Virus record (IMG/VR): IMGVR_UViG_3300047160_003987
Origin: an uncultured virus (IMG/VR IMGVR_UViG_3300047160_003987)
Taxonomy: Duplodnaviria; Heunggongvirae; Uroviricota; Caudoviricetes
DNA: 64,000 bases
Direction: 5' to 3' (one strand)
Part shown: one piece after another, positions 618 through 63,876 of the stretch
Layout: the number at the start of each line of letters is the position of its first letter
How positions within the stretch are numbered: the stretch's first letter is position 1
Made by a program: the position numbers and the translations under genes
Notes under the pieces: model-generated
The model's database searches: none
What the model was told of the DNA's origin: nothing
What the model saw: only the letters and a program-made list of their open reading frames with translations

Positions 618-709
618 GTGATGCTCCTGTATGCGAGCCCCAATGGCTCAATAATTATTTGTACCTTAAGAGAGGCGACGGTTCAACCGTCGCCCCAAGT
701 TATCCACAG
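618..709 (-). promoter_or_regulatory. early module copy 1: DnaA-box 12-mer, sigma70-like promoter, 5' hairpin, leader motif
   Basis: Minus strand: CTGTGGATAACT(709-698)-11 nt-TTGAAC-17 nt-TACAAA-8 nt-GAGCCATTGGGGCTC(649-635)...GAGCATCAC-ATG. Confidence 0.75.
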
Positions 710-3004: not shown

Positions 3005-3244
3005 GTGGAATGCTCCCCTATATGGAATACGATGTGATGCATTTGATCTGGGGCACCAGTTCACAGGAGATAAGACCGGTGCCCCAGAGGCGGGCGTTAT
3101 TTCATGACCACGGACACCTCCCGCTGGTCCATGTCACAGAACCTCGACGCATATGCCTAGATCTCTGCGCCAAGCCCCCTGTGCCGGGGTAACAACACGT
3201 GCAGTGTTCACTTGTTTATGTCCGCATTGTGTCGATCGAGAACA

Positions 3245-3421: not shown

Positions 3422-3531
3422 GTGATGCTCTCTGTTTGGTGAGCCCCAGTGGCTCGTTCATGAGGTGGTGTCTTGTGCCATGCTCTAGGTTCAATGTCAA
3501 CGTGACGTTGACCCTTTCCCTGTGGATAACT
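3422..3531 (-). promoter_or_regulatory. early module copy 3
   Basis: AGTTATCCACAG (3531-3520, inverted relative to copies 1, 2, 4), TTGACA/TTGAAC, 33 nt, GAGCCACTGGGGCTC (3455-3441), GAGCATCAC-ATG. Confidence 0.7.
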
Positions 3532-5986: not shown

Positions 5987-6007
5987 GCTGTGATGCTCCT
6001 CCCTGTA

Positions 6008-6857: not shown

Positions 6858-8159
6858 ATGGCGCATGAACAGCTTGTAAAAAACAAAGTTCTTCTATGTC
6901 CGGGCGATGCTTGGCATTTTTTGAAAGATACTCCAGACAACAGATATGATGCGGTCGTGACCGACCCGCCTTATGAATTGGGTTTCATGGGCAAAGACTG
7001 GGATCGTCGCGGCATTGCGTTTGATGCAATGTTCTGGGCTGAAGTGCTTCGTGTTCTCAAGCCTGGTGGCCACCTTACAGCATTTGGTGCCTCTCGCAAT
7101 TATCATAGGATGGCCTGTGCGATCGAGGATGCAGGCTTTGAGGTTCGCGATAGCCTGATGTGGATCTTTGGGACGGGGTTCCCGAAGTCACATGACATCA
7201 GCAAAGGGATCGATAAAGCGGCAGGGGCGGTACAGGAAGTTGTCGGTACTCGACCCAATGCCGTGCCATCTTATAGAAATAGCGCCAAAGGCGACGGCAC
7301 AAAAACCAATGACGGGCGCGACGCCGCCAACTGGGATGAATATAAGGCGCGCAGCACAAAGAATATTACTATCGCGTCAACCGCCGCCGCCCGCGAATGG
7401 CAAGGTTTCGGCACATCTCTAAAGCCAGCATTCGAGCCCATCGTTCTCGCGCGCAAGCCGCTGTCGGAAAAGACCGTTGCCGCCAACGTGCTGCGCTGGG
7501 GAACGGGGGCGATCAATGTTGATGGGTGTCGGGTTGGCATTCGAGAGAAGCCGAAAGTAACTAATCCTAAACGCACTTCGAACACCTATGGTGCAATTGA
7601 ATCGCCGGGCGGAAAACTACTACCGGATAGCCGCTGGCCGGCTAATATCTGCCACGACGGCAGCGACGAAGTGGTGGGGATGTTTCCGATGACCGGGCCG
7701 AGCAATGTGCGCCGCTCCGAAAACGAAGACATCGCTCAATCGACTTGGGCGTTAGGACGTACAGGCATCACGCCGAGGGGCGTATCGGATAACGGCGGCT
7801 CCGCCGCCCGCTTTTTCTACAGCGCAAAAGCTGATAGCAATGATCGCATCGCTTCCAAACATCCGACTGTAAAACCTATCGACTTGATGCGATGGTTGAT
7901 CCGTCTTGTAACGCCCCCCAATGGCTTAATATTGGACCCGTTTGCAGGAACTGGAACAACGGCCATTGCTGCGCTCTATGAAGGTATGCGATGCGTCTTG
8001 GTCGAGAATGAAAAAGAATACCAGGATGATATCAAACGCCGCATGAAATTATACGGAATGGGACCGGACCAATACGCCTATGAATTAGCGAAGTTGAAAC
8101 CAGTCGACCTTGGACCACTTTTTTCTTATTCCAATATTTCTGCACTCGATGGCAAATGA
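6858..8159 (+). CDS. N6-adenine/N4-cytosine DNA methyltransferase (beta class)
   Basis: VTDPPY motif IV N-terminal, HPTVKP, ILDPFAGTGTT motif I C-terminal. Confidence 0.92.
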   Translation: MAHEQLVKNKVLLCPGDAWHFLKDTPDNRYDAVVTDPPYELGFMGKDWDRRGIAFDAMFWAEVLRVLKPGGHLTAFGASRNYHRMACAIEDAGFEVRDSLMWIFGTGFPKSHDISKGIDKAAGAVQEVVGTRPNAVPSYRNSAKGDGTKTNDGRDAANWDEYKARSTKNITIASTAAAREWQGFGTSLKPAFEPIVLARKPLSEKTVAANVLRWGTGAINVDGCRVGIREKPKVTNPKRTSNTYGAIESPGGKLLPDSRWPANICHDGSDEVVGMFPMTGPSNVRRSENEDIAQSTWALGRTGITPRGVSDNGGSAARFFYSAKADSNDRIASKHPTVKPIDLMRWLIRLVTPPNGLILDPFAGTGTTAIAALYEGMRCVLVENEKEYQDDIKRRMKLYGMGPDQYAYELAKLKPVDLGPLFSYSNISALDGK

Positions 8160-8635
8160 TAAGCCTTCGCTCGGTTCCATATTTTTAGAACCTTGAACTG
8201 GTCTTGGTGAAATATCCCGAACTGACTGTCGGGGGGGTCGTTGACCTTGATCGCGTACGGCTGCAGATCAAAAGGAAAGGGAATTTCCAGAATTGAGTAA
8301 GCGTCTATCTTCTTTTCGTCCTCGCTTACGAAACCATAAAGAAAATACTTCACGGTCCCCTTTCTGATCTTGTCAATCTCAGTCAGCGTACCATTGGGGC
8401 GAGACCATCTGATCGTGATATCGAATGGATGAGCAATAAGCCACTTGGCTGTGCGCAGCCGAAGCGCGCACCTGATCGTCGGAGCCGCCAGCACAAAAAA
8501 GTCCGTCGCTTCTTTCTGATCGGCCCACTGGTCCTGAATAAAGCTTGAAGCATCCAACCCGAAGAACCGGCCAAGAATGCGCTTGACCATATCGGCATGA
8601 TGCTTTTCCAGGCGCATGTCATCCTGAACAGTCAT
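8126..8635 (-). CDS. hypothetical protein, possible restriction-endonuclease-like fold
   Basis: ATGA-coupled to the MT-A70 gene; D..KEATD, DITIR, TEIDKI, YFLYGF pattern. Confidence 0.55.
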   Translation of the reverse strand: MTVQDDMRLEKHHADMVKRILGRFFGLDASSFIQDQWADQKEATDFFVLAAPTIRCALRLRTAKWLIAHPFDITIRWSRPNGTLTEIDKIRKGTVKYFLYGFVSEDEKKIDAYSILEIPFPFDLQPYAIKVNDPPDSQFGIFHQDQFKVLKIWNRAKAYHLPSSAEILE

Positions 8636-9720
8636 TCGGCTGCTCTCTTGAATTTCGCCGTCTCATTGCCAAACTGAGCAAAACCTGGATGCTGTTCACG
8701 AGAAAAAACATCCAGCCGTGATCCAGCTGTGACCCGCGCAATGAGTTCGTAGAATTCCTTCGGCTTGCGCGAGTGTTCACGCCGCGGCCATTCATTACAG
8801 ACAAAGAAATTTTTCGTGTCAACAAAGACCGGCGTACCCTTCCGAGCATAGACGATGAACTCGGCATTATACTGGGGCAGATCATGCGGTTGAAACCCGC
8901 CAGGCTTGTGCCAGATCATTGTCAGCACATACCGCAGCGACAATTGATCCAGTATAGCGAGGCAGGACGGCAGATATTTCTCTGTCGTCCACCAGAAAAT
9001 ATGAGCATCCAGCTTTAGCCTCGGCGCAATTTCTCTTTCCCAGTGAGCCTTAATTTCATCAAGCTTCATGACGGGATAGTCGAAGGCATCCTGGTTGGGT
9101 CTGACATCACGATCGATCTTCTGCATGTACCATGGCGGATCACTCACGACCACGTCGAACGGTCCTTCTGCGGAAAATGCCGCAGCCATGATCTTCCTTT
9201 TCATTTTCGCCTTGTTGTGCTGCCGGTGCTTTTGAAGGACCGCATTCGGGTTTACTGCCTTACCTTCATCGACAAGTTCTCTGCAATACCGGTCCTGCAC
9301 AGGTTCTGGAATTTCATTCAGCTTTGTAGCCCGCGCCGATCGCTTATAACCAATGCCCATCTCGGCCCGCGTTGGGATGTTCTTTTCTGGCACTTCCACT
9401 AGGGCCATGCCAGTAATTAACCCGCGCTGCCCACGTTTCCCTGGCTTCGCACCTCGTATCTGCCCTTGTGTCCCCTTGGCCTTCCCGATGATAGTTAATT
9501 CCCGAGCAAGACGTAATTCAGCCTTGACCCAGATCTCACCTGCTTTATTGGCCACATCACTCACTGCGGAATATTTCCTCTGAACTTCCTTCGCCTCGAC
9601 AATTACCGCGTCGAGTTCAGATAATGTTCGCGCCCCTTTGATCTCTATAGCGAGACGTTCCAATGCCTTGAGAACTTTTGGCACTTCTGCAAATGTCTTG
9701 AATGAAACAATTTTCCCCAT
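8632..9720 (-). CDS. MT-A70 family N6-adenine methyltransferase
   Basis: FDVVVSDPPW, YPVM, IWHKP, EHSRKP, RLDVFSRE, FGNE. Confidence 0.92.
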   Translation of the reverse strand: MGKIVSFKTFAEVPKVLKALERLAIEIKGARTLSELDAVIVEAKEVQRKYSAVSDVANKAGEIWVKAELRLARELTIIGKAKGTQGQIRGAKPGKRGQRGLITGMALVEVPEKNIPTRAEMGIGYKRSARATKLNEIPEPVQDRYCRELVDEGKAVNPNAVLQKHRQHNKAKMKRKIMAAAFSAEGPFDVVVSDPPWYMQKIDRDVRPNQDAFDYPVMKLDEIKAHWEREIAPRLKLDAHIFWWTTEKYLPSCLAILDQLSLRYVLTMIWHKPGGFQPHDLPQYNAEFIVYARKGTPVFVDTKNFFVCNEWPRREHSRKPKEFYELIARVTAGSRLDVFSREQHPGFAQFGNETAKFKRAAE

Positions 9721-9721
9721 A

Positions 9722-10201
9722 TTACCAATTCCTCCCTATTGGTGGTCTTATCGCCCACCAGGCCAATAACATCGCCTCGGCCCTGTTGTGATCTCGTTTG
9801 CGAGGCAGGAAGTTTTCGAGATGAGGCCATAGCCTGAGCGCCAACCCGCGGGATGCTTCCTTGTCTTCACTGATCAGCTTAAAATAGCTTTTCCATGTCT
9901 GCGGCGCGACCAGTTCGAGCGGCGCACCAGTCGCTATGATGCTGGCCGCTTTGAGCATCCCATAGGTCACGCCGAAGCGGAATGACCCGACACGACCATC
10001 GCGCGGCATCGAATGGACTTCCTCGATGACAACGCGCTGTGGCATCAGACGATACATCCAAGGCCACAGCGCGCCGACATTGATCTCCCGCCGCTTGCCG
10101 ACATTGAGGGTCGGAAGATCAATGACATCAGCGAACTCGCCATTGGTCGGGTCTAGCGCAGCGGCGGCCCCATCAATACCAGGATCGATCGCGATGATCA
10201 C
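9722..10201 (-). CDS. RuvC-like Holliday junction resolvase
   Basis: IIAIDPG, VVIEEV, FRFG..YG, VAPQTWK, RAEAMLLA. Confidence 0.88.
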   Translation of the reverse strand: MIIAIDPGIDGAAAALDPTNGEFADVIDLPTLNVGKRREINVGALWPWMYRLMPQRVVIEEVHSMPRDGRVGSFRFGVTYGMLKAASIIATGAPLELVAPQTWKSYFKLISEDKEASRGLALRLWPHLENFLPRKRDHNRAEAMLLAWWAIRPPIGRNW

Positions 10202-10959
10202 GCCGCAGGTTCTTGACGCTTGGTAAACAGCGGACGCTCTTCCACGACGTCAGCCACAGCCTTGATCTGATGCGCTCTGAACTGCGATCGCGTCATCGAG
10301 ACACCAGAAGAGACCGGTACCTCTTCCTCATCAAGCTTTTTGAACCCTTTGGTAAGCTCTTCTTGATGATCGTGAAAGCCGCGCATGTAGGCATCATATC
10401 CAGGCGTGCCGGGTGCGTAGACCGGCGATGCCGGCTCGCCGGTACGACTGGCTTCCTCACCATCGGCATAGGCCATCATCTCAACATCATGACTGTCTTC
10501 TTCCTGCATGAACAGATCTAGCTGCTTGCCGAGGGAATACCCAAGCCAGCCAGCGATCGTGCAGTCTCGTGCGATCTGCATTTTGATCTGTTTCTCGCCT
10601 GCTTCCGCTTGCAGTCGGAAAGCCATGTCGAAGTCGCGCTGTAAAAACCCGTCCGCTTTGGCTGACTTGTACCCGTTGCGCACGTTTGACTGCGCCGTCG
10701 CCAACGCAGCTTTGAGCTTTGCTATTTTGGGGAGATGAACATCGAGAAACAATTTCTTTGCCTCGGCATCCACCTTGGCATTGCGCCGAAGCGCGATCTC
10801 CGGGGCCCTGTCTATAGTCCTGGCAGACCTCATTGCCGCTTTGCGCTTGATGCCGGCCGGTATGCGCTTCGCTTTTGCTTTCTTGGTAGCTCGCTGTTTC
10901 ATCGATGTCTCCGTCATGTGAGTAGGGAAGGGCGGACCCGGCAGCACCTGGGGGGACAC
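10198..10959 (-). CDS. hypothetical protein; GapR/DUF2312-like central region and RMF-like C-terminal motif (start uncertain, 10917 possible)
   Basis: VRNGYKSAKADGF...F segment; AYADG...PVY...YMRGF segment. Confidence 0.55.
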   Translation of the reverse strand: MSPQVLPGPPFPTHMTETSMKQRATKKAKAKRIPAGIKRKAAMRSARTIDRAPEIALRRNAKVDAEAKKLFLDVHLPKIAKLKAALATAQSNVRNGYKSAKADGFLQRDFDMAFRLQAEAGEKQIKMQIARDCTIAGWLGYSLGKQLDLFMQEEDSHDVEMMAYADGEEASRTGEPASPVYAPGTPGYDAYMRGFHDHQEELTKGFKKLDEEEVPVSSGVSMTRSQFRAHQIKAVADVVEERPLFTKRQEPAA

Positions 10960-11029
10960 TGCTGCCGGGCCCTATCGCGGCCTTCTATCCGTCCGAGGGG
11001 GGCACGACGAACGGACTTCCAGCCCCGAA

Positions 11030-11245
11030 TTACGTATAGTCGGAAGGTCGCAGATGTTCCCGGGAAATACCAATGGCCTTAGACAATTTTGTCACATGCT
11101 TCAACGGGATCACCTTCCACCTGGTTATGGCCTGTCTGCTGATCCCCAATATCTCGGCGAGCTGCACTCGGGTATACCCGCGCCTAAGCAGGTTCCGATA
11201 TGCCTCTCTATCGTTTCTGTGGATAACTTGCCAATTACTGCCCAT
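11030..11245 (-). CDS. Cro-like HTH regulator
   Basis: QLAEILGISRQAITRWKVIP...ISREHLRPSDY; divergent from the recombination operon. Confidence 0.85.
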   Translation of the reverse strand: MGSNWQVIHRNDREAYRNLLRRGYTRVQLAEILGISRQAITRWKVIPLKHVTKLSKAIGISREHLRPSDYT

Positions 11246-11337
11246 GCCACATTATGCCGATGCAAAGCTATGTTGACAAGAACAATACATCCGTTTACGA
11301 AAGACCCATGGGCCACAGGGGCCCGCTGGAGCATCAC
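11217..11337 (+). promoter_or_regulatory. early module copy 4
   Basis: CTGTGGATAACT (11217-11228), TTGACA (11273-11278)-17 nt-TACGAA-8 nt-GGGCCACAGGGGCCC (11310-11324), GGAGCATCAC-ATG. Confidence 0.75.
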
Positions 11338-11562
11338 ATGTCTGACTTCCCCACCATGATCATCGAACTGAACGACAATTCTTTCTGGCAAGTTCGCGAG
11401 ACCGGTTCTGCCGATCTTGCTCACGTCTGGCTCGGTGTTCAGGGCCGCTTCAATGCCAAGACCAAGGTCTTCACACCAAAGCCGAACCGCAAAGGCTCAG
11501 GCAACCGTCCCCGGCTAGTTTCCAAAGCTCACTGCTATCGCGTTCACGTGGCTGCCAATTAG
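11338..11562 (+). CDS. hypothetical early protein
   Basis: Start MSDFPTMI directly after the leader motif. Confidence 0.7.
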   Translation: MSDFPTMIIELNDNSFWQVRETGSADLAHVWLGVQGRFNAKTKVFTPKPNRKGSGNRPRLVSKAHCYRVHVAAN

Positions 11563-11578: not shown

Positions 11579-11610
11579 CTCATTCCCGCAACCAACACCG
11601 AGCATCACCC

Positions 11611-17705: not shown

Positions 17706-18962
17706 CTAATTTCTGGGAAAAGGCGCTGTCGGCACCACAAAACCTGCATCACTGGCATAACGGGCAACGCCTTTGGTGATGCGAACTTCGTCCACATAAC
17801 CTTGGAATGGATATAGACCGGCGGCATCCATTCCAATTGATATCTTGGCGGTGCAATTAGCGAGATTTCTTACCGTCGTTGTGCTGCCGATCATGACGCC
17901 ATCGGAATACATCCGAACCTTTGCTCCATCACAGTCGACAGCAATATGATGCCATGCATTGATGGACGGTGTGCTTGCCGGCGCCGCTATATCAAAATTA
18001 TTATCCGTTACAGCAACCGCTGTATTCCATGAAAGCTGATTAACATTAAACCACAGCACCCAGGCATGCTGATTGCCAAGATGATCCCATTGCGACAGAA
18101 TAAACGAATTTGCAGAACCATAAGCGAGAGGATATATCCAAAGCTCGACCGTGAAATTGCTCGTGCTGAAATACCAGTCATTGCTATCAGGCCACGTTAT
18201 CGCGCCATTACCGCCATTATAAGCATTGAGCGATGCTGTCCCGAACTTTTTGTTGCCTGTGCTGATTACAGCGGTGCCGACCACAGTCGCCGTGCCATGC
18301 ACGCTCGGACTTTCATCAGTCATTCCAGGCGTGGTGGTTGAGCCGTTCACGTCTTCAAAACCCAACAGCAGAACGACATTGCTGATATAGGGATCATGCG
18401 AGCCAAATACACAAAGCCCGATACTTTCATAAGCGAAACACTGACCGCCCGTACCAACATAGAAATATGAATTTGGAGCATTTTCCGATGACATCCAAAC
18501 AGTGGGGACATCGGTAAAAGCAGTGCTCAATTTTCCCGAAACTGTGACATTAAACCCGGTCCCTACTGGGGTTATGGTTGCGGTGCCTACAGCGCCAGTG
18601 CCTAGAGCAGTCGGGCCACTGGCCGTGCCGGCCTGCAAATCAAGCTCGCTATAGAACCCGTAGATCGAACCACCATCTGTTATCCACAGTCTGACATAGC
18701 GGTTATTAGCGCCAGTACCGCGGGCAATCCAAAGTGAGGCCCGTATGCTTGTATTGGCGGTGACATTGACCCCTGTGTACTTGGTATTATGATTCCCATT
18801 AAGGGTATTATCTGCAAATGTGGAAGCAGTCATTGATCCGCTGGCGCCAATCGCATTATTAGGCGTATCTGTTCCCAAATTTACGTTGGGACCCGTAAGC
18901 GTCCGGGGAATACAGACGGGCGCGCCAGATGGCCAGAGCAATGGCTGTGACTGTGGTTGCAT
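17706..18962 (-). CDS. LamG/concanavalin-like tail or receptor-binding protein
   Basis: FTVELWIYP...WHHIAV...GYVDEVRITKGVARY. Confidence 0.85.
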   Translation of the reverse strand: MQPQSQPLLWPSGAPVCIPRTLTGPNVNLGTDTPNNAIGASGSMTASTFADNTLNGNHNTKYTGVNVTANTSIRASLWIARGTGANNRYVRLWITDGGSIYGFYSELDLQAGTASGPTALGTGAVGTATITPVGTGFNVTVSGKLSTAFTDVPTVWMSSENAPNSYFYVGTGGQCFAYESIGLCVFGSHDPYISNVVLLLGFEDVNGSTTTPGMTDESPSVHGTATVVGTAVISTGNKKFGTASLNAYNGGNGAITWPDSNDWYFSTSNFTVELWIYPLAYGSANSFILSQWDHLGNQHAWVLWFNVNQLSWNTAVAVTDNNFDIAAPASTPSINAWHHIAVDCDGAKVRMYSDGVMIGSTTTVRNLANCTAKISIGMDAAGLYPFQGYVDEVRITKGVARYASDAGFVVPTAPFPRN

Positions 18963-43516: not shown

Positions 43517-44296
43517 CTATACACCGCACATCCCCTCACATTCATTGTTGAAAAGATCAGGCTGACCGATCTCGGCATCACTGCGAAGATCTACTTCCGC
43601 CAACAGCTTGCATGACCGATGCATGAATTGTTGTCCTTTCATCTTCGCCTGATGGCGGATGGCTGTATCGACTTTAATCGCATCAGCCAATTCCTCACTG
43701 CTCAATGACCGCCATTGCGCATCAGAATGAAATGGACACCCAATGCAAGAAGACTTCGGAGCATTCCAACCGGCGCGATCGAGCCACGCATGACAGTCCG
43801 CACGGTTCATTCTTAATTCGATCAATGGCCATCGGTTAACGACATACTGCACGCGCGATGGTTTCATGCGGAAAGCTTCATCGGTGGAGATGCCAAGCCA
43901 CATCTCCGTGGCACCCTTTGCGCGCCGACCGCCGTACATCTCCACGATCTTGCGACGAACTGGCTCGAGCTTGTAATGCGCAGTACATTGCCGGCGACCC
44001 ATGCCGATCGATCCATCAGTCTTGATAATAAACCAGGGAACCGCAGCATATTGTCCAGCGCGAGCCGATACCCCGGCGATCATGTCATCGCGAATATTGC
44101 TCGTGCTGACCCGATAGACTGGAAACGCTAAAACTTTCTCTAGCCGGCCAAGATGCTCGTAGACCGCCCTAGGCTCCCAACCCGTATCGGCAAAGATCGC
44201 ACAGTCCGGCATAGGTCCGATCTCTCGCTTTGTCGCCATCAACGCAAGCGTCGTCGACTGCACACCAGCCCCGAGAGAAATGATCCTCAATACCAT
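43517..44296 (-). CDS. PAPS-reductase/adenine-nucleotide alpha-hydrolase superfamily protein
   Basis: PP-loop ISLGAGVQST, IFADTGWEP, RQCT, KSSCIGCPFH, C-terminal ECEGMCG. Confidence 0.85.
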   Translation of the reverse strand: MVLRIISLGAGVQSTTLALMATKREIGPMPDCAIFADTGWEPRAVYEHLGRLEKVLAFPVYRVSTSNIRDDMIAGVSARAGQYAAVPWFIIKTDGSIGMGRRQCTAHYKLEPVRRKIVEMYGGRRAKGATEMWLGISTDEAFRMKPSRVQYVVNRWPLIELRMNRADCHAWLDRAGWNAPKSSCIGCPFHSDAQWRSLSSEELADAIKVDTAIRHQAKMKGQQFMHRSCKLLAEVDLRSDAEIGQPDLFNNECEGMCGV

Positions 44297-48254: not shown

Positions 48255-48271
48255 TATGACCCCTCCTCGAG

Positions 48272-48312
48272 AAAAAGGGCGGCGGAAGGAGCATCACCAC
48301 CTCCCGCCGCCC
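48272..48312 (-). terminator. intrinsic terminator whose loop is antisense to the GAGCATCAC leader
   Basis: GGGCGGCGGGAGG-TGGTGATGCT-CCTTCCGCCGCCC-TTTTT (13-bp stem with one G-U on the minus strand). Confidence 0.8.
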
Positions 48313-48362
48313 CGGCGTCGCACGCTTGCTGCTGCTGCAAGGACCATACGCCAAGCCACATT

Positions 48363-48686
48363 CTATCTCTGAGGTTCCACATGGTCAACTGGGGGCTTAC
48401 TCTCGACTGGAAGCTTATTCCCTTCGGTCTCGACTCGGGGCTTATTACCTTCGATCATCTGCTGCACGACCTCGCAAGTCTCAATGACCGCCACCGCCTT
48501 GCCATCAGCCAAATTGATCAGGCAATTGGTGGCCTTGTGATACATCCGATCATGCTCGGTCACACCTTCCCGCGGCCCACGCAGACTCGTTATCTGATCC
48601 GGGTTGACCTCAATGGCCGCGCCATCAGCACCATGCAATAGAATAAGAACGAACAGGAAGAGCATATCTTCCCCCATCTGTTGCAC
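48363..48686 (-). CDS. FlbD-like small protein
   Basis: LILLHGADG..IEVNPDQI...INLADGK...V.ET...V pattern. Confidence 0.55.
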   Translation of the reverse strand: MQQMGEDMLFLFVLILLHGADGAAIEVNPDQITSLRGPREGVTEHDRMYHKATNCLINLADGKAVAVIETCEVVQQMIEGNKPRVETEGNKLPVESKPPVDHVEPQR

Positions 48687-52231: not shown

Positions 52232-55200
52232 TTATGTACACTGCACATAAAGCGCGGTAATAAAGATCGATGATGCCGCCGCCGACACCGTCGCCGTCCA
52301 ATTGTTCGCCGCCGTCGCCTGCACCATCGCACTGTCAACCGGCACCGTAAAACCTCGCATGTCGCCCGCAGGAACCATCACCGTCATGCGCGTTGTTCCC
52401 GCCGTCGAATCCTTGATCGCAACGTTGACCGCCGTGCCGCTCGTGTTCGAGATCGTCAGGCCATAAATATCGTTGAATACACCCGATGAGCCCGCCGTCA
52501 CGATCGTGGTTTCCGTCGTCGTTGTGATCGTCGTGGTCTGAAGCTTCTTGAGATCGCGCAGCGCCCCCACCACCACCTGCTTGCCAAGCTTGTCAAATAT
52601 TGCAGTGACACGCTGGCCATCACTGACCGCGGTCGGGTTTGCCGTCTTGGCAAGGCCGCCAATTTTCTGTGGGTTGCCGCTGTCCGTCGTGCCGGACGCT
52701 ATTTCGCCGACACACTGCTGGTTCACAGTCGACTTGATATTCACCAGCACGTTGCCGGCGCTGTCCAACTGCAACGGCGAGGAATTGCCGCTGGTGATCG
52801 TCGTCGGCGTGGTGTTGAACTCACCCCCGATCAAAATAGCCTGCCCAGGCGTCGCAATGTTCTGCGTCGAGGCAAAGTCAAAGACACCGCCGCCATTGCC
52901 GACACAGCGCGAGGTCCATGTGCCACCTTGCGAGGCCGTGCACAGGAAATTCGCAGCATTGTTCTGAAATGCCAGCGTCTCATGCGCCGCCGTCGTCAGA
53001 TCCGACTGCACCGCCACCGTGCCCGTGCCGGCAATGACCGTCGACAACCTGGCGCGGACGTTGGTCGCCCCCGTCGCAATGATCTGGAAGGCCTGGTTCG
53101 TGCTGGCCACAAACGTATAGGGGTTGGTCAGCTGCGATCCCGTTACCGGGTCGATCAGCCGGCTGACCGGAATGGTCTTGTAATTCGTGCCGCCATCATA
53201 CGACTCTTCGAACGTCACTGCGCCACCCGTCAGCGTCGTACCCTGTGTCAGCTGGCCTACAATGGTGTTGTAGGTGACAAATGTTGTCGCCAGCATGCTG
53301 ATGACGGAATTCAGCGTCGTCACCGACGTCCATGATCCAGTGCCTTGCGTCGGACTCGGCGTATAAACCCACAATGGTGACGCATTGCTGCCAAGCTCGA
53401 TCCCCGTCGCCGTCCGCAAATTGACAAAACCGGCGCGGTTGGCCGTCATCTGCCACGCACCGCCCTGCCCATTGGTCAAGGCATTGTTCGTGGCCGTGGT
53501 CTGGAAAAAACCGCCCGCAGGCGTGTAATTGGTCGTGCCCGCGGTAAATGCCGCCGCGTCCTGCGCCGCCGTGCCGCCACTGCCGGCCCCCGCCTTGATG
53601 TTGACCAGCAAATTGCCGGACCCATCCATCTGCAGCGGGCTCATGTTGCCGCTGGTGATGGCCGTCGGCGACGTGTTGAACTGCGCCAGCGCCATTACGC
53701 CATTGGCCACACTCGCGCTGTTCTGCGTGCTCGACCCAATGCCCCAGTTCGCCGCCGTCAGCGGATCAACCTGCCCCTTTAAATTTGCCGCCGTGGCCTG
53801 TTGCACCGTCACCGCGGCCGCAACGCTCACCGGCTGTGTCACTGCGCTGCCATCGACCTTCAGCGCCGTCGTATTCGCCCCCGTGCCGGTCAGATCAACC
53901 CGCAGCCCGCCCGTCGTGGTCAGGCTCAATGGGCTGGTCTGGGCCGTCGTATAAGATGGCGCAGACGTCGTGACTGCCCCCATGCCCAAATTGCCCGTCT
54001 GTCCCGATGTCGTCGACCCCTGGGTGGCATTGCTCGGTTGGTTGGCGCTGGTTGAAGCGCCGGTCGGCAGCGATACCGTGCCGCTGACATTGGTGATGTT
54101 CCAGGTCCCGCTCTGGCTGGCCGGAAACACCCCGCCCGTGCCCGTCACCAGCCACGCCGTGGTATTCGCCGTGTTGCCCGGTTGAACCGTCCAGGTCCCA
54201 CTCTGCGTCACCGCCACAGTGCCGCTGACAGGCTGAGTGACCGCCGAGCCGTCAACGCGAAGCGCACCGGCCGTGGTCAGCGAAAAAGGACTAGTCTGCG
54301 CGGTCGTATAGCTTGGCGAACCGGTAGTGACGGCGCCCATGCCCAACGTACCAGTTTGGCCCGACGTCGTTGATCCCTGCCCCGCATTGCTCGGTTGGTT
54401 TGCGCTGGTCGACGCCCCGGTTGGCAGACTGATCGTTCCAGAGATATTCGTGACGTTCCAGGTGCCGCCTTGGTTCGCCGTCACGGTCCCGCTGACCGGC
54501 TGCGTGGCTTGCCAGAACGTTCCGCTCACCGGCTGGGTGACAGCTGAACCATCGACGCGTAGGGCCCCGGCAGTCGTGAGCGATAGATAATTGCTGGTCG
54601 CCGTCGTGTACGAGGGCGCCGCAGTAGTCACAGCACCCAAAGCTAAACCGCCCGTTTGACCGGACGTGGTGCTCGCTGCAGCAGCGTTCGTAGGCTGGTT
54701 CGCTGAAGTAGCCGCTCCCGTAGGCAGGGGCAGGCTGGCAGCACTCACAGGCTGGGTCGCCTGCCAAAACGTTCCCGTGACCGCCACAGAGGCGTTCGTC
54801 AAATTGACGTTCGCGCTCGTCGACGTCATCGCCCACGTCGTTCCGTCCGGCTTCATACTCCATGGGGCACCCCCTTGGTTCGCCGTAACCGTGCCAGTCA
54901 CCGTCGCCGTGCCAGTAATGCTGACCGAACCCGATACCGGCTGTGTCGTCGCACTGCCATCAACGCGTAAACCACCCGCGGTCGTCAGGCTTAACGGGTT
55001 GGTCTGCGCCGTCGTGTAGGTCGGCGCACCCGTCGTGGTAAACCCCATAGCCACGTTGCCAATTTGGCCCGAGCTGGTCGAGCCAACTGCCGCCGCCGTG
55101 GGTTGGTTCGCCGATGTAGCCGCGCCAGTAGGCAGTGGCAGGGAGGCCGCCGACACCGGTTGCGTCGTCTGCCAGAACGTCCCCGTCACCGCGACAGACG

Positions 55201-58200
55201 CATTCGTCAGGTTGACATTGGCAGACGTCCCAGTCAGCGCCCAGGCCGTCCCGTCCGGCTTCATCGTCCATGGCGCACCTCCTTGGTTCGCAGTGATGGT
55301 CCCAGATACCGGCTGCGTCACCCCCGAGCCGTCAACCACAAGCCGGCCAACCGAACTCAACAGCAAGCCGTTCATTTGCCCCGTGGTCAGCGTCGGCGGG
55401 CTGGTCAAATATTGCCCGCCTATCGCCGTGCCCGTCGCTGGAAAGCTCGATCCGAACGAACTCGATGTCCCGCCGCCACCCGAGCCCGCGATCACATTGA
55501 CCCGAACCGCACCACTGGTATCCAGGCTGATCGGACTGGTCTGGCCCGTCGTATAGCTCGGGTTGCTGGTCGTCACCGCACCCATCGACAGCGCGCCAGT
55601 CTGGCCACTCGTTGTCGACCCCTGCGCCGCATTGCTGGGTTGGTTGGCCGATGTCGCGGCGCCGGTCGGAAGGCTGATGGTGCCTGAGATATTATTGATA
55701 TTCCAAGTGCCGCCCTGCGAGGCCGTGCACAGCAGGTTGGCAGCATTGTTCTGGTAAGCTACCAACTCATTTAAATTCGGCGTCGATAAATAATAGATCG
55801 TGACCGTGCCAGTCCCAGCGATCACAGTCGACAACCGAACACGAACCTGGGCGCTGCCCGTACTAACGATCTGCCAGGCCAAATTGGTGTTCGCTACCAG
55901 CGTATACGGGTTGGCAATTTGCGCCCCCGTCGACGGATCGATCAGCCGCCCAGCCGGCACCGCCTTCCATACCGTGCCATTGTCAAACGTCTCTTCAAAC
56001 GTCACCGCGCCGCCAGTGATCGTGGTCCCTTGCGTCAGTTGCCCCTGCAGCGTGTTATATGCAGCACTGCTGCTGGGAATAACTGCGACCGTCGTGTTCA
56101 GCGCCGTCGCCGAGGTCCATGCCACCGAACTCTGCGTCGACGGCAAACTCGGAATGACAAAAAGCGGTGAGCCGCTAACACCCAATTGGTTGCTGTTGGC
56201 ATCCCGCAAATTCACCTGCAAAGCCCGATAGGCCGTCAGCTGCATCGTGCCCTGCTGGCCAGCTGTCAGCGGGTTGCTGTTCGCGCTCGCCTGATAAAAA
56301 CCGCCAGACGGTGTAAAATTGCTGCTGCCCGCCGTGAACGTGCTTTCATCCGCCGCCGCCGTCCCACCACTGCCCGCACCAGCCTTGATATTCACCAACA
56401 AATTGCCAGCACTATCCAGCTGCAGCGGGCTGGCATTCCCCGACGTGATGGTCGTTGGCGTCGTATTAAACTCGCCACCCACCAGGAACGCATTGGCCGG
56501 CGCCGACACATTCTGCCCGGCAAAGTCCAGGATCGCACCCGCATTGCCAACCGTGCGACTGGTCCAGTTGCCACCCTGGTTCGCCGTGATGGTGCCGCTG
56601 ATCGGTTGCGTCACCGCCGAGCCATCCACCTTCAACGCACTCGAGGCCGTGACCGCCGCCGTGTTGCCGCCCTGGCTGATCGAGGTCAACCATGGCGTGC
56701 TGTTGGCGGTATTGCCGGGCTGAACCGTCCACGTGCCGCCCTGCGAGGCTGTGACCGTGCCGCTGACAGGCTGGATCGTGGCCGAGGCATCCGTGCGTAA
56801 CGCACCCGCCGTGGTGAGCGAGAACGCATTGCTCGTCGCTGTCGTATAGGACGGCGCCGCAGTCGTTACAGCACCAAGAGCCAGATGTCCGGTCTGCCCC
56901 GTCGTCGTACTGCCCAATGTCGCATTGCTGGGCTGGTTCGCTGATGTTGCAGCCCCAGTCGGTAACGAAACGGTCCCCGAGATATTCGTAATGTTCCAGG
57001 TGCCCGACTGCGTCGCCGCCACTGTACCCGAGATCGAGACCGAGCCCGAAATAGGCTGCGTCACCCCGCTGCCATCCACACGCAGCGCCCCCGCCGTCGT
57101 CAGCGATAACGCATTCGACGTCGCCGTGGTGTAGCTCGGCGCACCCGTCGTGACCGCCCCCAGCGATACCGTCCCAGTCTGCCCCGATGTCGTCGACCCC
57201 AGGCTCGCATTCGATGGCTGGTTCGCACTGGTCGACGCCCCCGTCGGCAGCGAGATCGTGCCCGTCACATTGGTGATGTTCCAAGCCCCGCTCTGCGTCG
57301 CCGCAATGGTCCCGCTCACAGGCTGCGTCGCCTGCCAGAAGGTCCCGCTCACGGGTTGCGTCACAGCGCTGCCATCGACTTTAAGCGACCCGGACACATT
57401 GGTCTGCAGCGCCACCATCTGGCCATTGGTCAGCGACGGCGGTGTCGAAAGGTATTCAGCGCCCGCCGCGGTGCCCGTCGTCGGAAACGTCGCGCTGAAG
57501 TTGGAACTTGTCCCGCCGCTGCCCGCCCCACCCGTAATATTCACGTTCAGCGAACCCGACGTGCTCGAGATCGCATTCCCCGACCCATCCTGCGTCCGCG
57601 TCAACCATGTCCCGCCCTGGTTCGCAGTCACAGTTCCGGATACGGGCTGCGTTACACCGGACCCATCCACCCGGATCGCACCCGCCGTTGTCAATGAGAT
57701 CGGGTTGGTGTTCCCATTCGTATACGTCGGCGCCGAAGTCCCCACAGCGCCCTGCACCAACGTTCCCGTCTGCCCGGCTGTGGCCGAACCCTGCGCCGCC
57801 GCCGTCGCCTGGTTCGCGCTCGTGGCCGCCCCAGATGGCAACGGAAGGGCACCAGCAGAGATCGGCTGTGTCACTGCCGACCCATCCACCTTCAGCGCGC
57901 CCGCCGCGCTCACGGTGGCGCTGTTGCCCCCCGCATTGACCGTCATCAGCCATGGCGTCGTGTTCGCCGTGTTCCCAGGCTGCACCGTCCAGGTTCCCGA
58001 CTGGCTCACAGGAACCGTGCCCGTGATCCCGATCGAACCCCCCGAGATGGCGACCGTCCCGGATACAGTCTGCGTCACCCCGGACCCATCAACCCGCAAT
58101 GCACCCGCCGGCGTGAGACTCAGCGGGTTGGTCTGGCTGGTCGTGTAACTCGGCGCCGCCGTCGACGTCGCCCCCATCGCCAGATGCCCGGTCTGACCGG

Positions 58201-58591
58201 ATGTCGTCGACGCAATAGCCGCATTCGTCGGCTGGTTCGCCGCCGTCGCCGCACCCGTCGGAAGGCTGATGGTCCCCGTGATGTTGGTGATGTTCCACGT
58301 GCCGCTCTGCGTGGCCGCCAGCGTCCCCGATACCGACCACGGCCCGCCGCTCTGCGTCACGGCGCCAATAACGTTCGCCCCCGCCTGCAGCACAATGCCG
58401 CCAACAATGTCCCGCGAAATCGAACGCAACTTGGCAGAGACCGACCCCGCAGCGCCAGCTGTCACCGCGAGGTCCGTTGACGCGCCATAGGTGATATTCG
58501 CACCGTCAAGCAGCGTCTGCCCCAACGTCGTGATGGTGCCGGTCCCCGAGGTGGGAACGCCGTTGACGATGCCTACAATGGGATCGGCCAT
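52232..58591 (-). CDS. giant (2119 aa) T/S/G/A-rich repeat protein, probable fibre
   Basis: Many repeats of W..TN.SGT.SLPTGA.TSANQP...SGQTG...APSYTT....SLTT.GALRVDGS.VTQP.SG; two copies of a globular GQLTQGTT.TGGAVTFEE domain. Confidence 0.85.
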   Translation of the reverse strand: MADPIVGIVNGVPTSGTGTITTLGQTLLDGANITYGASTDLAVTAGAAGSVSAKLRSISRDIVGGIVLQAGANVIGAVTQSGGPWSVSGTLAATQSGTWNITNITGTISLPTGAATAANQPTNAAIASTTSGQTGHLAMGATSTAAPSYTTSQTNPLSLTPAGALRVDGSGVTQTVSGTVAISGGSIGITGTVPVSQSGTWTVQPGNTANTTPWLMTVNAGGNSATVSAAGALKVDGSAVTQPISAGALPLPSGAATSANQATAAAQGSATAGQTGTLVQGAVGTSAPTYTNGNTNPISLTTAGAIRVDGSGVTQPVSGTVTANQGGTWLTRTQDGSGNAISSTSGSLNVNITGGAGSGGTSSNFSATFPTTGTAAGAEYLSTPPSLTNGQMVALQTNVSGSLKVDGSAVTQPVSGTFWQATQPVSGTIAATQSGAWNITNVTGTISLPTGASTSANQPSNASLGSTTSGQTGTVSLGAVTTGAPSYTTATSNALSLTTAGALRVDGSGVTQPISGSVSISGTVAATQSGTWNITNISGTVSLPTGAATSANQPSNATLGSTTTGQTGHLALGAVTTAAPSYTTATSNAFSLTTAGALRTDASATIQPVSGTVTASQGGTWTVQPGNTANSTPWLTSISQGGNTAAVTASSALKVDGSAVTQPISGTITANQGGNWTSRTVGNAGAILDFAGQNVSAPANAFLVGGEFNTTPTTITSGNASPLQLDSAGNLLVNIKAGAGSGGTAAADESTFTAGSSNFTPSGGFYQASANSNPLTAGQQGTMQLTAYRALQVNLRDANSNQLGVSGSPLFVIPSLPSTQSSVAWTSATALNTTVAVIPSSSAAYNTLQGQLTQGTTITGGAVTFEETFDNGTVWKAVPAGRLIDPSTGAQIANPYTLVANTNLAWQIVSTGSAQVRVRLSTVIAGTGTVTIYYLSTPNLNELVAYQNNAANLLCTASQGGTWNINNISGTISLPTGAATSANQPSNAAQGSTTSGQTGALSMGAVTTSNPSYTTGQTSPISLDTSGAVRVNVIAGSGGGGTSSSFGSSFPATGTAIGGQYLTSPPTLTTGQMNGLLLSSVGRLVVDGSGVTQPVSGTITANQGGAPWTMKPDGTAWALTGTSANVNLTNASVAVTGTFWQTTQPVSAASLPLPTGAATSANQPTAAAVGSTSSGQIGNVAMGFTTTGAPTYTTAQTNPLSLTTAGGLRVDGSATTQPVSGSVSITGTATVTGTVTANQGGAPWSMKPDGTTWAMTSTSANVNLTNASVAVTGTFWQATQPVSAASLPLPTGAATSANQPTNAAAASTTSGQTGGLALGAVTTAAPSYTTATSNYLSLTTAGALRVDGSAVTQPVSGTFWQATQPVSGTVTANQGGTWNVTNISGTISLPTGASTSANQPSNAGQGSTTSGQTGTLGMGAVTTGSPSYTTAQTSPFSLTTAGALRVDGSAVTQPVSGTVAVTQSGTWTVQPGNTANTTAWLVTGTGGVFPASQSGTWNITNVSGTVSLPTGASTSANQPSNATQGSTTSGQTGNLGMGAVTTSAPSYTTAQTSPLSLTTTGGLRVDLTGTGANTTALKVDGSAVTQPVSVAAAVTVQQATAANLKGQVDPLTAANWGIGSSTQNSASVANGVMALAQFNTSPTAITSGNMSPLQMDGSGNLLVNIKAGAGSGGTAAQDAAAFTAGTTNYTPAGGFFQTTATNNALTNGQGGAWQMTANRAGFVNLRTATGIELGSNASPLWVYTPSPTQGTGSWTSVTTLNSVISMLATTFVTYNTIVGQLTQGTTLTGGAVTFEESYDGGTNYKTIPVSRLIDPVTGSQLTNPYTFVASTNQAFQIIATGATNVRARLSTVIAGTGTVAVQSDLTTAAHETLAFQNNAANFLCTASQGGTWTSRCVGNGGGVFDFASTQNIATPGQAILIGGEFNTTPTTITSGNSSPLQLDSAGNVLVNIKSTVNQQCVGEIASGTTDSGNPQKIGGLAKTANPTAVSDGQRVTAIFDKLGKQVVVGALRDLKKLQTTTITTTTETTIVTAGSSGVFNDIYGLTISNTSGTAVNVAIKDSTAGTTRMTVMVPAGDMRGFTVPVDSAMVQATAANNWTATVSAAASSIFITALYVQCT

Positions 58592-63865: not shown

Positions 63866-63876
63866 TGTGATGCTCC

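Follow-up and report, generated by a model that had tools for sequence, protein, structure and literature searches.

A Conserved, Predicted Phage Hairpin RNA and Its Possible Role as an Antisense Regulator of Early Genes as a Class

Introduction

Class-wide shut-off of early translation in phages is classically brought about by protein, e.g., RegA of T4. The c4 RNA and the CI RNA of P4 are phage-encoded and trans-acting, present complementarity to phage leaders in a loop, and repress lytic-side functions. In P1 and P7, c4 is a 77-nt trans RNA directed against ant, and the reviewed phage antisense RNAs act on single targets or on host genes (PMC12197685). In StxS, as in the PR´-tR´ arrangement of lambda, a constitutive promoter ahead of the late genes gives rise to a short trans-regulatory RNA; StxS acts on the rpoS and stx1 mRNAs and requires Q antitermination as well as Hfq (PMC7547250). 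In the Alphaproteobacteria, Cuckoo/CcsR (alpha-r14) is built of neighbouring hairpins whose stems vary and whose fixed loop motif is complementary to ribosome-binding sequences (PMC4615179). The closest published match to the arrangement described here is the SAS/ESAS system of Cluster K mycobacteriophages, in which a conserved, asymmetric AGGAG tag is found just before the starts of non-structural genes (PMC3203893). Other conserved bases of SAS have no pairing partner in 16S rRNA, about half of the elements have an upstream inverted repeat, and four genomes carry a single copy in opposite orientation away from starts; whether the binding partner is RNA or protein was left open by the authors (PMC3203893). 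In the literature searched, with most subscription papers outside its scope, we found no phage RNA aimed at a tag shared by early leaders.

Here, we report a predicted hairpin RNA of an uncultured phage, the loop of which is complementary to a tag at the start codons of early genes, and follow RNA and tag through related genomes.

Results

The Phage and Its Host

The window, i.e., the whole stretch of 64,000 nt that was analysed, is the nearly complete genome of an uncultured tailed phage of soil origin, and the identical element is also found on a metagenome contig of 64,026 bases. A protein family search assigned capsid (phrog_334), portal (phrog_156), terminase, Erf-like, exonuclease, helicase and cro-like HTH genes. 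No integrase was matched among 91 window proteins, and a tyrosine integrase or resolvase was found in none of five phage records. At the DNA level, there was no match to 50,697 named phages. All protein matches were below 60%, the best for the capsid being 48% (Rhizobium phage RHph_Y1_10), and the phage thus has no cultured relative. The host would be an alphaproteobacterium, judging from the Rhizobium-phage capsid match, the style of the promoters (PMC7703639, accessible text) and a weak GapR-like lead. The latter is a 234-aa protein (10198-10902, -), kept in both phage groups described below, which resembles clusters labelled GapR DNA-binding and RMF weakly, at feature level, and serves as a lead only. 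The genome also has two DNA methyltransferase genes and a PAPS-reductase-family gene (6858-8159, +; 8632-9720, -; 43517-44296, -), as well as an ORF of 2119 aa (52232-58591, -) with many degenerate repeats and no PHROG match.

The Predicted RNA Element

The element and its promoter comprise the following features.

48270-48353, minus strand: predicted small RNA of two adjacent hairpins, about 83 nt, from the fold; no Rfam family
48314-48352, minus strand: hairpin 1 (5´ domain), from the fold; sequence and length vary among homologues
48277-48312, minus strand: hairpin 2, a GC-rich 13-bp stem (48312-48300 with 48289-48277, one G-U)
48289-48300, minus strand: recognition loop GUGGUGAUGCUC with seed GUGAUGCUC; conserved in homologues
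48272-48276, minus strand: U5 tail, from the sequence, with which hairpin 2 could plausibly serve as an intrinsic terminator, in this genome alone
48383-48388, minus strand: -35 element TTGACC within the 3´ end of the upstream ORF, from a promoter scan; conserved in homologues
48360-48365, minus strand: -10 element TAGAAT with -7T after a 17-nt spacer, from a promoter scan; conserved

An earlier note on this DNA had read the minus strand as two hairpins, the second a 13-bp stem with U5, and this holds: positions 48352-48270 fold at -47.4 kcal/mol (z -3.8), and none of 200 shuffles was equally stable. The loop of hairpin 1, given there as AGCA, has 7 nt and reads AGCAGCA. A strict simple terminator scan did not list hairpin 2. 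The complement of the tag in hairpin 2 extends over 11 nt (GUGAUGCU), with eight bases in the loop and the final three in the stem. Unfolding as far as the 11th base, which varies among homologues, costs about 10 kcal/mol vs. 5.7 for the 9-nt seed. A predicted G-C pair within the loop reduces accessibility, and the pairing of the seed amounts to 9-10 bp only.

The promoter (TTGACC-17-TAGAAT, 48388-48360, -) is the best of seven promoter-like matches between 44000 and 52500, with 10 of 12 positions matching, and its predicted +1 at around 48353-48352 would be the first base of hairpin 1. The ORF in which it resides (48363-48686, -) is FlbD-like at an atlas score of 0.85, which is a lead only; the promoter lies in its C-terminal tail, which the homologues in L009 and L011 lack. 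Rfam 15 gave no match in the window and eight homologue loci other than generic hairpins far below the gathering threshold. A peptide encoded through the loop was considered and discarded, as ORFs from the loop AUG run for 7-283 codons with no common frame. Pairing of UGGU in the loop with tRNA 3´ ends, or of GGUGAU with the 16S tail, is conceivable.

A Tag at Early Start Codons

The 11-mer AGGAGCATCAC occurs exactly three times in the window, at 618-628 (-), 5990-6000 (-) and 48287-48297 (+), against 0.06 copies expected, and three copies were reached in none of 100 shuffles. The exact complementarity of the hairpin to the first two sites is thereby as described earlier. The shorter GAGCAWCAC has nine copies vs. 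1.32 expected (0/100 shuffles), eight of which lie 0-3 nt ahead of a start codon; the exception at 48289-48297 is the antisense of the hairpin loop and, in agreement with the earlier note, the sole copy not before a start. That note had counted seven complementary leaders. Their complementarity stands, and the number is raised to eight, in addition to a variant at about 3005-3016. The tags, including one weak site with a mismatch and the variant, are as follows.

618-628, minus strand: tag, ATG 617, ORF of 70 aa
1020-1028, minus strand: tag, ATG 1019, ORF of 100 aa
3422-3430, minus strand: tag, ATG 3421, ORF of 58 aa
5990-6000, minus strand: tag, ATG 5986, ORF of 105 aa; predicted less accessible and outside the top 28 with opening energy charged
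11328-11337, plus strand: tag, ATG 11338, which opens the rightward early operon
11600-11609, plus strand: tag GAGCATCACC, ATG 11611, ORF of 54 aa; best predicted duplex
63867-63876, minus strand: tag, ATG 63865, ORF of 52 aa
6336-6346, minus strand: one-mismatch tag GAGCAACAC, GTG 6334; weak target
3005-3016, minus strand: variant tag GGAGCATTCCAC, ATG 3004, ORF of 342 aa; possible ninth target

The tags contain GGAG and are scattered over the early operons, 37-48 kb and 15 kb from the RNA. The gene at 11338, for which a protein search returned 14 relatives, is followed in its operon by Erf-like, exonuclease and NinB-like genes. Tags are present at 8 of 45 early and none of 47 late starts (Fisher p = 0.002; 92 starts, classed as early or late by coordinate). 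Pairing energies of -14 kcal/mol or lower with the loop are reached by eleven starts, nine early and two late; shuffled loops (n = 500) give 0.9 such starts on average and never 11. When the energy for opening the target is charged, the top five starts are all tagged leaders.

GAGCATC ranks first of its 630 permutations ahead of ATG in the window and in the relatives G002 and G003. When some 30 strong hairpins were ranked in an unguided manner by the frequency with which start regions mirror their loops, the present hairpin came first in the window; its counterparts came third in G002, second in G003 and outside the top six in G008.

A Family of Homologous Hairpins

Homologues were sought by protein synteny, not by loop, in a search for TerL relatives that returned 17 loci. 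Among the close relatives, three distinct ones extend far enough upstream (89%, 83%, and 82% TerL identity), and all of them carry the hairpin with the same loop, altered stems and the promoter, and in one of them the upstream gene differs. The fourth close relative is truncated, and the hairpin was not found at the more distant TerL loci. Of eight loci from a second synteny search, two were already known, one had no upstream DNA, three were new members and two were without the element, i.e., new members appeared at three of five new informative group B loci. Pattern scans yielded members in 9/29, 9/10 and, for metagenomes, 18/64 of the stretches hit. The other 20/29 (mostly within a coding family), 1/10 and 46/64 were non-members, and none of 25 pattern matches in 185,579 bacterial and archaeal genomes was a true member. 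In this sorting, members had stems of at least 9 bp and non-members of at most 6 bp; L062/L065, with an AU-rich 10-bp stem and no promoter, were dropped. A covariance-model search then added members with variant loops, and the family now counts 22 distinct hairpins in related phages with no Rfam counterpart.

The loops fall into 14 of the canonical class GGUGAUGCUC, one ending in GCUUU, six ending in GCG(U), and one UUCGGUGAUGCGG; apart from the window copy, the remaining 13 canonical members read UUGGUGAUGCUC. UUGG opens 20 of the 22 loops and is a YUNR motif, which presents the bases that follow it for pairing in antisense RNAs (PMC6562991, accessible text); the window copy is without YUNR. 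Across 13 aligned sequences, the loop is near-invariant, including a UUG at its 5´ side that pairs with almost no target. In the stem, 94% of cells are paired and 8 of 12 pairs show double-sided changes, a level of covariation not approached in 500 shuffles and far above that of slid controls, although relatedness of the sequences inflates the shuffle test. The structure of hairpin 2 is thus conserved. For the hairpin 1 domain, the group B alignment gave no consensus structure and that of group A an unconvincing one. In L192 (~1190-1330, +) and L030, the 5´ domain has 40-60 extra nt, with a UUCG-capped hairpin in L192.

The promoter motif is conserved as well. TTG..-16/18-TAnnnT precedes all 14 canonical hairpins, 10 of which had not been chosen by promoter, at a chance of about 0.05 per member by our own arithmetic. 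The distance from promoter to loop is 55-71 nt in 12 of the 14, and 106 and 126 nt in the other two. A U-rich tail is found in the window and in the type C members and is weak or missing in most canonical members. In 20 of 22 cases, a gene with a ribosome-binding site follows 16-34 nt downstream; the upstream gene varies.

The element has moved between loci. It is placed ahead of the TerL block in group A. In group B, the genes that follow it are a small QHDPD gene, a ParB-like gene and a terminase from a different family. In type C, seen in context in G007 and G014 and by position in three more, it lies between the cro-like and GapR-like genes, and these copies have U-rich tails and no strong promoter. 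G014 has two copies of the hairpin. Three genomic positions and two unrelated packaging modules fit an action in trans.

Loop and Tag Across Genomes

In near-complete genomes, we counted a start as tagged if GAGCATC lies within 5 nt of an ATG that opens at least 35 codons. Five genomes with the canonical loop have 8, 6, 7, 4 and 6 tagged starts, three with variant loops only have 1, 2 and 0, and three in which no RNA was found have 1, 3 and 0, the permutation mean being about 0.4-0.6 per genome. Canonical loop and tag thus co-occur; the genomes are related, so these counts are not independent, and G009, with three tagged starts and no RNA detected, goes against the trend.

The earlier note had proposed covariation of loop and leaders as a check, and the outcome is mixed. 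One gene with clear orthologues has GAGCATC in 9 of 11 leaders. In G013, the orthologous leader reads AAAAGCAUC (AAAAGCATC at the tag) and the loop has become GAUGCUUU, so that two positions are changed on both sides; this is the one candidate for a compensatory change, in one gene of one genome. In G007, the tag of the orthologous leader is lost. The loop variants in G007, L024, G012 and the second copy of G014 have no mirroring change in leaders, although a 7-bp core is retained. Two further candidates were rejected. A G004 hairpin with loop GUUCAGCU matched only one true leader as a covarying variant, and for GGATTTC in G009 the matches were not leaders. At the G004 site (~25300; L176:5290-5340, +), a promoter-like site and a small hairpin are followed by an 11-bp hairpin, its loop being GUUCAGCU, and by a U-tail, a layout similar to that of the element; a matching set of leaders was not found for it.

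Other Elements of the Early Leaders

A second small hairpin, with a 5-bp stem and a 5-nt loop, is found after early promoters and ahead of the tag, also in many relatives. In the window, it occurs at these positions.

635-649, 1039-1053 and 3441-3455, minus strand: leader hairpin GAGCC-N5 (AUUGG)-GGCTC upstream of tags
11310-11324, plus strand: variant leader hairpin

Its stem is near-fixed (38/43), with two compensatory GAGAC/GUCUC copies, and it is also present in genomes without the canonical RNA. It is probably a separate element of early leaders, and we take it to resemble a boxB-type or operator element. The early promoters, e.g., at 11273-11301 (+) and ~3500-3472 (-) and also in relatives, have a good TTGAC -35 and a -10 that lacks -7T in all 35 scored, a figure that includes near-duplicate rows and was obtained by other rules than those applied to the RNA promoters.

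Further observations concern the surroundings of the leaders. The 9-mer TTATCCACA, which we take to be the DnaA-box consensus, has five exact copies (700-708, 1105-1113, 3521-3529, 11218-11226 and 18680-18688; 0.27 expected), four of which lie 70-110 nt upstream of tagged early leaders. Between the cro-like HTH gene (11030-11245) and its neighbour, an apparent two-hairpin region with a C-rich loop GUGUCCCCCCAGG was noted by eye at 10910-11030 (-); the equivalent region holds the type C loop hairpin in G007 and G014 and a different hairpin in G005. A partial tag also occurs within the operon of the RNA itself. In L118 (~630-647, +) and L143 (~3080-3095), the leader of a gene two places further down reads GAGGCGCATCAC-ATG, which the window orthologue does not have.

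Discussion

Judged by sequence, the element is a conserved and uncatalogued phage RNA element, and a good candidate for an antisense regulator that controls the translation of early genes as a class. We consider it fairly probable that it acts in trans and that its RNA covers the Shine-Dalgarno sequence and spacer of early mRNAs; a single RNA would then probably switch off about eight early genes together. The central idea of the earlier note, one RNA loop opposed to a shared early tag, gains support as a putative pairing from the covarying stem, the restriction of the tag to early genes and the co-occurrence of the two. In this model, host RNA polymerase would transcribe an RNA of about 80 nt, with the ends predicted here, from its own near-consensus sigma70-type promoter. 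A highly stable 3´ hairpin would display a loop of 10-12 nt, the seed of which could pair in vivo with GAGCAUCAC in a duplex of 9-10 bp. The tag overlies the Shine-Dalgarno and spacer sequences (~-12 to -1) of early genes, several of which open an operon, and pairing would block 30S binding and turn down the early genes as a class. Since the promoter has no evident need for a phage factor, synthesis of the RNA would most likely begin immediately, and its build-up from the outset may act as a burst-then-shut-off timer for early genes. Late transcripts that run on from the upstream tail operon may add to the RNA in this genome.

The element differs from each of the SAS, c4, StxS and Cuckoo systems in a defining feature and is a member of none of them. 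As far as the accessible text describes SAS, the element works like it and lies outside its family. Both have a repeated asymmetric tag with a Shine-Dalgarno core before non-structural starts (here 8/45 early and 0/47 late) and a single reversed copy that is not at a start, with one or two per genome in the present relatives. The SAS consensus is GGGATAGGAGCCC with 17-bp ESAS inverted repeats, vs. GAGCAUCAC and a 15-nt upstream hairpin here, and host group and phage type are different. The reversed copy here is the loop of a covarying hairpin behind a promoter, whereas the accessible text describes no such RNA for SAS. With c4 and CI, the element shares a length of about 77-83 nt, the phage origin and a loop that presents short complementarity to leaders. 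It has no match to Rfam C4, forms two hairpins rather than a cloverleaf, and would have many scattered targets in place of the leader of a single antirepressor operon (icd/ant or kil); no antirepressor or integrase family was matched among the window proteins. StxS has its constitutive promoter ahead of late genes; in the present family, a putative promoter precedes the TerL block in groups A and B, and the type C copies lie after cro. The targets, however, would be the phage's own early leaders, the terminator tail is not conserved, and no Q-type antiterminator family was matched in the window. With Cuckoo, it has in common adjacent hairpins, a variable stem and a fixed anti-ribosome-binding loop. 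Cuckoo carries CCUCCUCCC in the loops of 2-4 hairpins, vs. AGCAGCA and UGGUGAUGCU here, and is a generic anti-Shine-Dalgarno RNA, whereas the single phage-borne loop here has a private address of 9-10 nt that includes the spacer.

One alternative, which we regard as unlikely, is that the element acts in cis as the leader of a long operon, with the hairpin as an attenuator or antitermination signal whose loop binds protein or RNA polymerase, comparable to the leader signals nut/boxB of lambda and put of HK022. This operon would hold the packaging genes in groups A and B and, for type C, the replication genes that come after cro; complementarity to the early leaders would then be secondary or incidental. 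The close downstream gene in 20/22 members, the weak U-tail of most of them, and the fact that all three positions head long operons are in keeping with a leader, as are the conservation of a UUG that does not pair and the second copy in G014. Yet a leader function leaves unexplained why the exact complement is enriched at early starts only, why tags track the canonical loop and why the loop changes in G013. Moreover, no antiterminator family was matched among the window proteins, and G007 and G009 have the same downstream gene with no element ahead of it.

A more elaborate version of the trans-acting model, which appears distinctly unlikely to us, would make the RNA a growth-state switch common to phage lineages, based on dormancy, exclusion and CarD. 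In an alphaproteobacterium, promoters without -7T depend on CarD, which drops in stationary phase (PMC7703639, accessible text). The RNA would come from a CarD-free promoter with -7T, and its target mRNAs from CarD-dependent promoters without it. In slow-growing soil hosts, the RNA would prevail and silence the early programme, giving dormancy without integrase and exclusion of relatives with the same address; in growing hosts, early mRNA would titrate the RNA and lysis would follow. If true, the switch would supply the missing trans partner of SAS-type tags.

The earlier note had taken the RNA to be a late one that could silence the early regulon. In the strict form of this reading, the RNA would be cut from the 3´ end of the tail-operon mRNA and shut early translation at the early-to-late switch. 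We hold this to be improbable, and as a general design it finds no support. In the window, hairpin and U5 do close a co-oriented run of tail-like genes, the type C copies look like terminators, sit where the cro-like gene ends and lack a strong promoter, so that 3´-derived members exist, and the elements of groups A and B lie 2-6 kb ahead of TerL, so that their promoter could be late-activated. Against this, the conserved promoter with -7T stands alone and places the predicted +1 at the first base of hairpin 1. An RNA with its own sigma70-type promoter is not simply 3´UTR-derived, nor is it necessarily late. Furthermore, the upstream gene differs between members, the U-tail is mostly missing, and the type C copies would be early.

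Pairing with the tags could also serve mainly to keep the phage silent as a carrier state, or to keep out superinfecting relatives with the same tag, instead of timing a lytic cycle, which we consider very improbable. Loop and tag are common to phages with unrelated terminase and portal families, -7T is present in the RNA promoters and in 0/35 early target promoters (near-duplicates included and other scoring rules applied), and four TTATCCACA boxes lie beside early leaders. A tyrosine integrase or resolvase is, however, absent from 5/5 records and from the 91 window proteins, and none of the 25 pattern matches in the bacterial and archaeal genomes was true. Finally, it is hardly credible that the tag is a favourable ribosome-binding or protein-binding DNA site and the hairpin copy unrelated, for although the tag contains GGAG, the loop GGUGAU is presumably part of an extended Shine-Dalgarno sequence and short motifs are prone to post hoc selection, the loop is invariant in a covarying stem of 13 sequences, the conserved promoter fixes the strand, GAGCATC comes first among its permutations before ATG in three genomes, and late genes, which are most in need of strong sites, are without the tag.

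In conclusion, the RNA and its tag form a pair that is small enough for a two-plasmid test without the phage, in which the natural, putatively compensatory variant could serve as control. If trans-acting control is confirmed, this would be an RNA that addresses an entire early regulon through a private tag in its ribosome-binding sites, and it would provide a concrete answer to the question raised for SAS in 2011, namely what binds the tag and why there is a single reversed copy.
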